Source: Escherichia coli
Lineage (GTDB): Bacteria > Pseudomonadota > Gammaproteobacteria > Enterobacterales > Enterobacteriaceae
Assembly (NCBI RefSeq): GCF_003334315.1
Contig: NZ_QOWR01000100.1
Direction: 5' to 3' (one strand)
Length of the DNA stretch: 4,320 bases
Shown here in pieces: positions 1 through 210 of this stretch. Both the position numbers and the translations under genes were made by a program. Position 1 is the first letter of the stretch; every line of letters starts with the position of its first letter. Under the pieces are notes generated by a model. That model saw only the letters and a program-made list of their open reading frames with translations, was not told where the DNA came from and made no database searches.

Positions 1-75
1 ATCTACACAAGAACAGGCGTGTTTCGAGGGGGCATAGAAGACTAAAATACTGCGTACAGCATGAAAATTCATTGA
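1..75. repeat. Terminal redundancy: 1-75 is identical to 4246-4320, i.e. wrap-around of a circular replicon of about 4245 bp rather than a biological repeat
   Basis: Direct read: the 75 nt atctacacaagaacaggcgtgtttcgagggggcatagaagactaaaatactgcgtacagcatgaaaattcattga occur at both ends. The copy at 1-45 is the 3' end of the CDS 3772..4290. Confidence 0.8.
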
Positions 76-210
76 ACAGAGTGTTAGTTCATTTTCGTGC
101 ATGGCTATGCATACACGCAAAACTTATCAGCGCGATTCCGGGCGGTTTTCGGTGAGAAGACGGGCTCTTTTGTGGCTCAGGACGGAAAAACGCCCTGAGC
201 GCGTCTGAGC

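Follow-up and report, generated by a model that had tools for sequence, protein, structure and literature searches.

The ColE1 site cer carries, next to its recombination core, about 180 bp of accessory DNA that is bound by ArgR and PepA (PMC2409434, PMC2655662, PMC2699498). A single 18-bp Arg-box lies 98 bp upstream of the XerC site in cer (PMC2409434), and phased A-T tracts have been described in cer-like sites (PMC2831885). For PepA there is no usable consensus (PMC2409434), so that its binding is not predictable from sequence. The site mwr of pJHCMW1 depends experimentally on both ArgR and PepA, and its ARG box has been called less than ideal (PMC2699498). The stretch of ColE1 that separates the ARG box from the core codes for a 70-nt checkpoint RNA, Rcd, whose transcription starts from the promoter Pcer and runs parallel to that of RNAII (PMC4393325, PMC2831885); the Pcer spacer is 15 bp (PMC5935869). 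All ColE1-like plasmids examined in one study have RNAII entering the site through its accessory arm (PMC2831885).

The DNA analyzed here, a stretch of 4,320 nucleotides from Escherichia coli (the window), corresponds over its entire length to pK, a 4245-bp ColE1-like plasmid of Salmonella Enteritidis (NC_003456.1). Window bases 1–300 are 100% identical to pK and to identical E. coli plasmids, and the circle is closed with a 75-base overlap in which 1–75 are repeated as 4246–4320 (the 18-mer at 56–73, for example, is found again at 4301–4318). An Rfam search of the whole window returned RNAI, at 1022–1122 on the minus strand, as the sole match, with no Rcd family and nothing within 1–300. RNAI on the minus strand indicates a ColE1-type replicon with RNAII on the plus strand, entering the site described below from its accessory side, and this orientation relative to oriV fits the rule for cer/mwr-type sites. 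The 172-aa open reading frame that runs into the site has a signal-like sequence at its N-terminus and accompanies the accessory arm in relatives; an NCBIfam search with the two flanking frames (3772–4290, plus strand; 275–862, minus strand) gave no match. Since the 172-aa frame ends at circle position 45 and the 195-aa frame ends at 275, the segment 46–274 is intergenic. A perfect 6-bp inverted repeat, GCCGCC-TGTAAT-GGCGGC, is located at 249–266, 11 bp past the XerD arm and before the stop codon of the 195-aa frame; it may serve as a terminator for that frame or for plus-strand read-through.

An initial annotation had proposed that this region holds the accessory DNA of a cer-type Xer site, and had singled out three motifs as its possible determinants: an inverted repeat at 62–71, a hairpin at 175–200, and a pair of CTGAGC repeats next to the XerC arm. 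All three motifs are present at those positions, and the assignment to a cer-type accessory region is borne out by comparison with known sites. We predict that 46–238 is a cer/mwr-type XerCD multimer-resolution site, with 46–210 as the accessory arm and 211–238 as the core, and that the three motifs are by-products of the architecture of the arm; we place the probability of this reading, taken as a whole, at roughly 0.8. The features on which it draws are collected in Table 1.

Table 1. Features of the pK site and its flanks (window coordinates)
Feature	Position	Strand	Remarks
mob genes and 172-aa open reading frame	172-aa frame 3772–4290, ending at circle position 45	+	pointing into the site
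Distal A-tract AAAAT	44–48		outermost conserved feature of the arm; overlaps the stop codon of the 172-aa frame
ARG-box-like 18-mer ACAGCATGAAAATTCATT	56–73	+	lineage-specific
TGAAAATTCA (TGAA-AA-TTCA)	62–71		inverted repeat inside the 18-mer 56–73
GAAA	74–77		family-shared (ARG-box anchoring)
GTTCA	87–91	+	pK form of the ATTCA half-site that the family conserves 6 nt before the ARG box
ARG box homologue CGTGCATGGCTATGCATA	96–113; core TGCAT-GGCT-ATGCA 98–111	+	predicted ArgR site
Pcer-equivalent positions	98–124	+	GTGCAT-N15-CAAAAC in pK, degraded-looking (ColE1 alignment)
GCGATTCCG	132–140	+	relic of the Rcd basal stem (5' strand); pairs imperfectly with 183–193
T-tracts	146–149, 168–171		with A-tracts 119–122 and 186–190, the phased A/T tracts of the arm
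Hairpin GCTCAGG(a)CG-GAAAAA-CG(c)CCTGAGC	175–200	+	lineage-specific
XerC-proximal block CGCCCTGAGCGCGTCTGAGC	191–210		conserved; holds both CTGAGC copies
XerCD core	211–238	+	XerC arm GGTGCGCCCAA, 6-bp central region GGGATG, XerD arm TTATGGTAAAT
195-aa open reading frame	275–862, ending at 275	-	convergent; lipoprotein-like ...ISGC motif

The core has the 28–30 bp layout of an 11-bp XerC arm, a central region of 6–8 bp and an 11-bp XerD arm, and its XerD arm is identical to those of ColE1 cer and mwr. For a wider comparison, one genome per species was scanned for GGTGCG-N11-13-TTATGGTAAAT, which yielded 120 core-containing loci; a BLAST comparison of the pK site with the upstream regions of these loci revealed homology from about 88 to 238. 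On the XerC side, about 165 bp of accessory DNA can be aligned to ColE1 cer, to pJHCMW1 mwr, and to more than 50 further cer-like sites, and in a 51-site alignment the proximal block and the A/T tracts are conserved along with the ARG box. When 54 cer-like sites were anchored on the ARG box, positional motifs common to the family extended back to about position 44, where the family consensus is AAAAT at approximately 1 bit per base (44–48). The conservation of this distal A-tract, of GAAA and of the ATTCA half-site thus gives a conserved architecture of about 165 bp, a length that would be expected of the accessory arm in a cer-type site.

In terms of overall organization, the pK site shares with ColE1 cer the order of accessory arm, XerC arm, central region and XerD arm, the spacing from ARG box to XerC arm, phased A/T tracts, the orientation with respect to RNAII, and a place downstream of the mob genes. 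The two sites differ in the central region, which is 8 bp in cer and 6 bp in pK, in the XerC arm (GGTGCGTACAA in cer), and in the right half of the ARG box, which is ATTCA in cer and ATGCA in pK; they are 56% identical over 114–210, and the Pcer hexamers, the Rcd stem and the U-run of ColE1 are not conserved in pK. With mwr, pK shares a 6-bp central region ending in GATG (CAGATG in mwr), a length also found in psi, as well as the ATGCA right half of the ARG box, a XerC-proximal block of the form AAACGCCCTGAG-N5-CTsAGGC, and a core that is 86% identical. The left half of the mwr box, however, is CGCAT; mwr retains a full Rcd-type stem-loop (86 bits, as a member of the training set of the model described below), and its CTsAG copies are inverted (CTGAG...CTCAG), forming a 6-bp hairpin, whereas those of pK are direct. 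On inspection by eye for a psi-type ArcA site, a single TGTTAG was seen at 82–87, with no second direct repeat.

The position of the ARG box is the most regular feature of the arm. About 50 sites carry the element TG[CA]AT-N4-AT[GT]CA at a fixed distance of 113–117 bp on the upstream side of the XerC arm, with pK and ColE1 both at 113 bp (ColE1 core taken as 3909–3938 of NC_001371). In the pairwise alignment, the ColE1 cer box GTTGCATAGGTATTCATA falls on 96–113, and TGCATGGCTATGCA (TGCAT-N4-ATGCA) occurs once in the plasmid, at this same position. Against the E. coli ARG consensus the match of 96–113 is weak, with 10 of 16 specified positions. The fixed spacing in about 50 sites, together with the single Arg-box of cer, nevertheless identifies 96–113 as the ARG box homologue, and by homology and spacing the ArgR site of pK is therefore likely to be 96–113 rather than 62–71.

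The predicted ArgR site is the last of three ARG-like 18-mers that stand in series with a 20-bp period, at 56–73, 76–93 and 96–113, and that score 13, 12 and 10 of 16, respectively. Such an arrangement, with 2 bp between successive 18-mers, is reminiscent of the E. coli arginine operators, in which two ARG boxes are 2–3 bp apart. In pK, however, only the third 18-mer is family-conserved (within 76–93, only the right half-site is), and cer-type sites are single-box sites (PMC2409434). The conserved half-site in 76–93, ATTCA at -11 to -7 from TGCAT, is the best-conserved element upstream of the ARG box, its C reaching 1.8 bit in the 54 sites, and it is missing from ColE1 itself; it could provide an extra contact for ArgR or PepA, and no description of it was found in the literature searched. 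A 20-bp tandem duplication was considered as the source of 56–95 and rejected, as pK aligns without gaps with the conserved upstream A-tracts of the family.

At the other end of the arm, the pK block CGCCCTGAGCGCGTCTGAGC aligns with CGCCCTGAGGGCCTCTCAGGC of mwr and CGCGCTGAACGCGTTTTAGC of ColE1, at an information content of 0.5–1.0 bit per position. It is in this block that the CTGAGC copies reside, at 195–200 and 205–210; as had been reported, the second of them lies directly against the XerC arm, which begins at 211. The repeat extends to the 7-mer CTGAGCG with a spacing of 10 bp. The direct repeat itself is at chance level (a 6-mer repeated at a distance of 9–12 bp was obtained in 10% of shuffles), and its second copy is variable. 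CTGAG is found at -16/-17 from the XerC arm in 22 of the 51 sites, and at -6/-7 the family has CTGAG in 8 sites and CTCAG in another 8. With the two forms equally common, a direct repeat one helical turn apart is one of two states that are a single base apart. Two tracts are likewise conserved in the family, TTT (-43 to -41) and AA(A) (-24 to -22). The AA/TT periodicity of about 9.5–10.5 bp in 46–210 was matched or exceeded by 0.15–1.9% of shuffles; 12 periods were tested and these values carry no correction for it, so that the significance is moderate.

The hairpin is formed by GCTCAGG (175–181) and CCTGAGC (194–200) with 12 nt between them, and it can be extended to 9 pairs around an A.C mismatch. 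It is present as initially noted, and it is stable, with a folding energy of -16 kcal/mol and z = -3.7. As a motif it is nonetheless at chance level, with a perfect 7-bp stem and a loop of 3–15 nt arising in 11% of dinucleotide shuffles of 46–210. Its loop, GAAAAA (185–190), coincides with the family-conserved A-tract at -24 to -22, and its 3' arm lies inside the conserved XerC-proximal block, whereas its 5' arm lies in a variable stretch. When 17 relatives are read in the register of pK, 65.1% of cells are paired, compared with 65.3% in column shuffles, and only one double-sided change was seen; RNAalifold returned no consensus helix at 175–200. A conserved RNA or DNA hairpin at this position, lacking both covariation and an alifold helix, was therefore discarded. 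Over the last 50 nt before the XerC arm, the mean z of 57 sites is -0.4 on the plus strand and -1.1 on the minus strand, which indicates that hairpin propensity is not a property of the family. Given the variable 5' arm and the lack of covariation, the hairpin arises where a variable segment happens, in this lineage, to complement a conserved block, or is at most an element peculiar to the lineage. Four relatives (L134, L135, L006 and L132) have it as well and its stability is above that of shuffles, which leaves room for a lineage-specific function.

An unlikely alternative is that the hairpin and the CTGAGC region form the 3' half of an Rcd-like RNA that is transcribed rightward from a Pcer-like promoter overlapping the ARG box. 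The pK segment 125–205 is indeed the positional homologue of ColE1 rcd, with a stable local hairpin at 175–200 and with fragments of the basal stem, in that the homologues of GCGATTCCG in the ColE1/mwr clade are GCGTTTCTG and GCGATCGC, which belong to a stem that covaries in that clade. In pK itself, 6 of 11 basal-stem pairs are kept. Across the pK clade, 73.5% of cells pair between the segments 132–140 and 183–193, as compared to 31–47% for slid registers; this value is not above shuffles, and no significant covariation was detected in the clade.

The remaining evidence argues against an Rcd-like RNA in pK. We infer that Pcer of ColE1 corresponds to TTGCAT-N15-TAAAAT at 3795–3821, the only fit found on the ColE1 sequence; the equivalent hexamers of pK are GTGCAT and CAAAAC, the latter without the final T, and a sigma-70 scan of 1–320 returned no promoter-like site. 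The 80 nt downstream of the inferred Pcer in ColE1 fold into one long stem-loop with z = -4.9, whereas the pK interval has z = -1.4, and at the place of the ColE1 U-run before the XerC arm pK has TCTGAGC. In 21 sites of the ColE1/mwr clade, the Rcd stem-loop exhibits compensatory changes in 15 of 22 pairs and many G.U pairs, the latter suggesting that function resides in the plus strand. From this clade a covariance model (R1) was built; it recovers CloDF13, which was outside the training set, at 68 bits, and also detects L087, L115 and L118, the four matches spanning 43–68 bits. The CloDF13 parB site was missed by the core regular expression and was found only by this model. In pK, R1 gives no plus-strand match; the only match is on the wrong strand, at 13.7 bits and E = 1.9. 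The covarying Rcd stem-loop maps to 3828–3896 in L002, 3232–3301 in L137 and 4814–4883 (minus strand) in L138. Without a promoter, a model match or a long stem, the pK site does not behave as an Rcd module, while it does behave as a cer-type resolution site. The Rcd module thus apparently decayed in the pK clade, a prediction from sequence comparison and the only mildly new point to emerge from it.

It is similarly improbable that pK and its relatives constitute a cer-type sub-class that has lost the Rcd RNA, with its promoter, long stem and terminator, and that carries in their stead lineage-specific modifiers of synapse assembly or of XerC activity. The modifiers would be a repeat that forms a stable hairpin or is prone to cruciform extrusion, no more than 11 bp from the XerC arm, and the extra ARG-like boxes that precede the conserved box in 20-bp phase.

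Somewhat less probable again is a reading along the lines of the initial annotation, namely that ArgR binds, alone or in addition to another site, at 62–71 or at the 18-mer 56–73 that encloses it, and that the hairpin and the CTGAGC copies are specific sites for accessory proteins, peculiar to this plasmid. The 62–71 element is not a true 10-bp palindrome; it has 4-bp arms, or 5-bp arms if read as ATGAA/TTCAT (61–72), around AA, and inverted repeats with 5-bp arms and a spacer of 0–4 nt are at chance level, occurring in 49% of shuffles of 46–210. The match to an ArgR box had been called loose and poor. In the 18-bp register 56–73 it is in fact better than that, with 13 of the 16 positions specified in the ARG consensus WNTGAATWWWWATTCANW, for which about 0.35 matches are expected per 4.3 kb. 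Given this score, ArgR might bind at 56–73, 40 bp further upstream than 96–113, as well or instead, and the 20-bp period of the three 18-mers would suit such a view, as would the two CTGAG copies and CTCAG at -35, which at -6, -16 and -35 lie on roughly the same helix face.

Conservation speaks against this version. The family information content at 62–71 does not exceed 0.6 bit (54 sites), and the ATTCA half is mutated in the nearest diverged relatives, to ATCTA in L123 (a Hafnia plasmid) and to ATCCA in L124 (a Salmonella Senftenberg plasmid), so that the inverted repeat is broken although 1–115 is nearly identical to pK in both. A box at 56–73 would also stand 40 bp beyond the distance from the core that is conserved in about 50 sites. 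Moreover, a good match is no guarantee of binding, as a 16/18 consensus match upstream of and adjacent to loxP did not bind ArgR (PMC2409434). The second CTGAG, for its part, is replaced by CTCAG in an equal number of relatives. The 18-mer 56–73 is most likely non-functional, with a small residual chance that it acts as an auxiliary ArgR site. At the position of TGAAAATTCA, about 150 bp upstream of the XerC arm, the two MOBQ plasmids L134 and L135 carry a perfect 16-bp palindrome, GGCCTGAATTCAGGCC, and L014 carries CCTAAATTCAGG; an element of the form T(G/A)AA..TTCA may go back to the ancestor of this sub-clade.

The weakest alternative, in which the 175–200 hairpin is a transcription terminator or barrier that halts read-through from the mob genes and the 172-aa frame, or from RNAII, before the Xer core, is highly improbable: the hairpin is GC-rich and stable, these genes all lie on the plus strand and are directed into the site, and a terminator scan of 1–320 gave a single match, on the minus strand at 202–190, but a T-run follows the stem on neither strand (the plus strand continues with GCGTCTGAGCGG, which has no U-run, and the T-run counted as a tail on the minus strand is the loop of the larger hairpin), one match is not much more than shuffling the region yields (0.3 ± 0.5), and most cer-like sites in the same genetic context are without the hairpin.

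It is thus unlikely that the motifs initially singled out are functional determinants of the site, since the inverted repeat is unconserved, the hairpin does not covary and the CTGAGC pair is variable. Their placement about 150 bp upstream of the XerC arm holds for the 62–71 repeat only; the other two are within 36 bp of the arm.

Returning to a cer/mwr-type resolution site as the preferred reading, we can outline how it would operate by analogy with cer and mwr. An ArgR hexamer would bind the single ARG box at 96–113, and PepA would bind and wrap the flanking DNA on both sides, aided by the phased A/T tracts; the 62–71 repeat, rich in A/T and unconserved, would simply be part of the distal arm that PepA occupies. 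Two directly repeated sites of a plasmid dimer could then interwrap into a synapse, in which XerC would initiate strand exchange at the core (211–238), converting dimers to monomers. Resolution activity and the binding of ArgR and PepA at the pK site are expected on the strength of this analogy.

The sequences surrounding the site have a mosaic distribution. Many plasmids are 96–99.6% identical to pK over 1–238 and unrelated past the end of the XerD arm at 238. The points at which relatives switch lie inside the core in L126 and L127, near 194 in L125 (pSYM7), and just past the ARG box (about 115) in L123 and L124. This mosaicism fits an exchange of modules by Xer-mediated and homologous recombination at conserved blocks.

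The pK site is an ordinary, hitherto uncharacterized member of the well-known cer-type family. Identical or nearly identical copies are found in plasmids of Salmonella, E. coli, Klebsiella, Citrobacter and Enterobacter, PLSDB contains roughly 900 sites with a match to 40–238, and a predicted dimer-resolution site is hereby annotated for a widespread small plasmid backbone. The comparison also corrects the expected position of ArgR, and illustrates that the spotting of motifs misleads when it is not accompanied by a comparison to relatives. That Rcd, judged by its covariation, is strongly conserved in one clade of cer-like sites and has apparently decayed in the pK clade may be of modest use for work on the Rcd/indole checkpoint and on vectors that carry cer.
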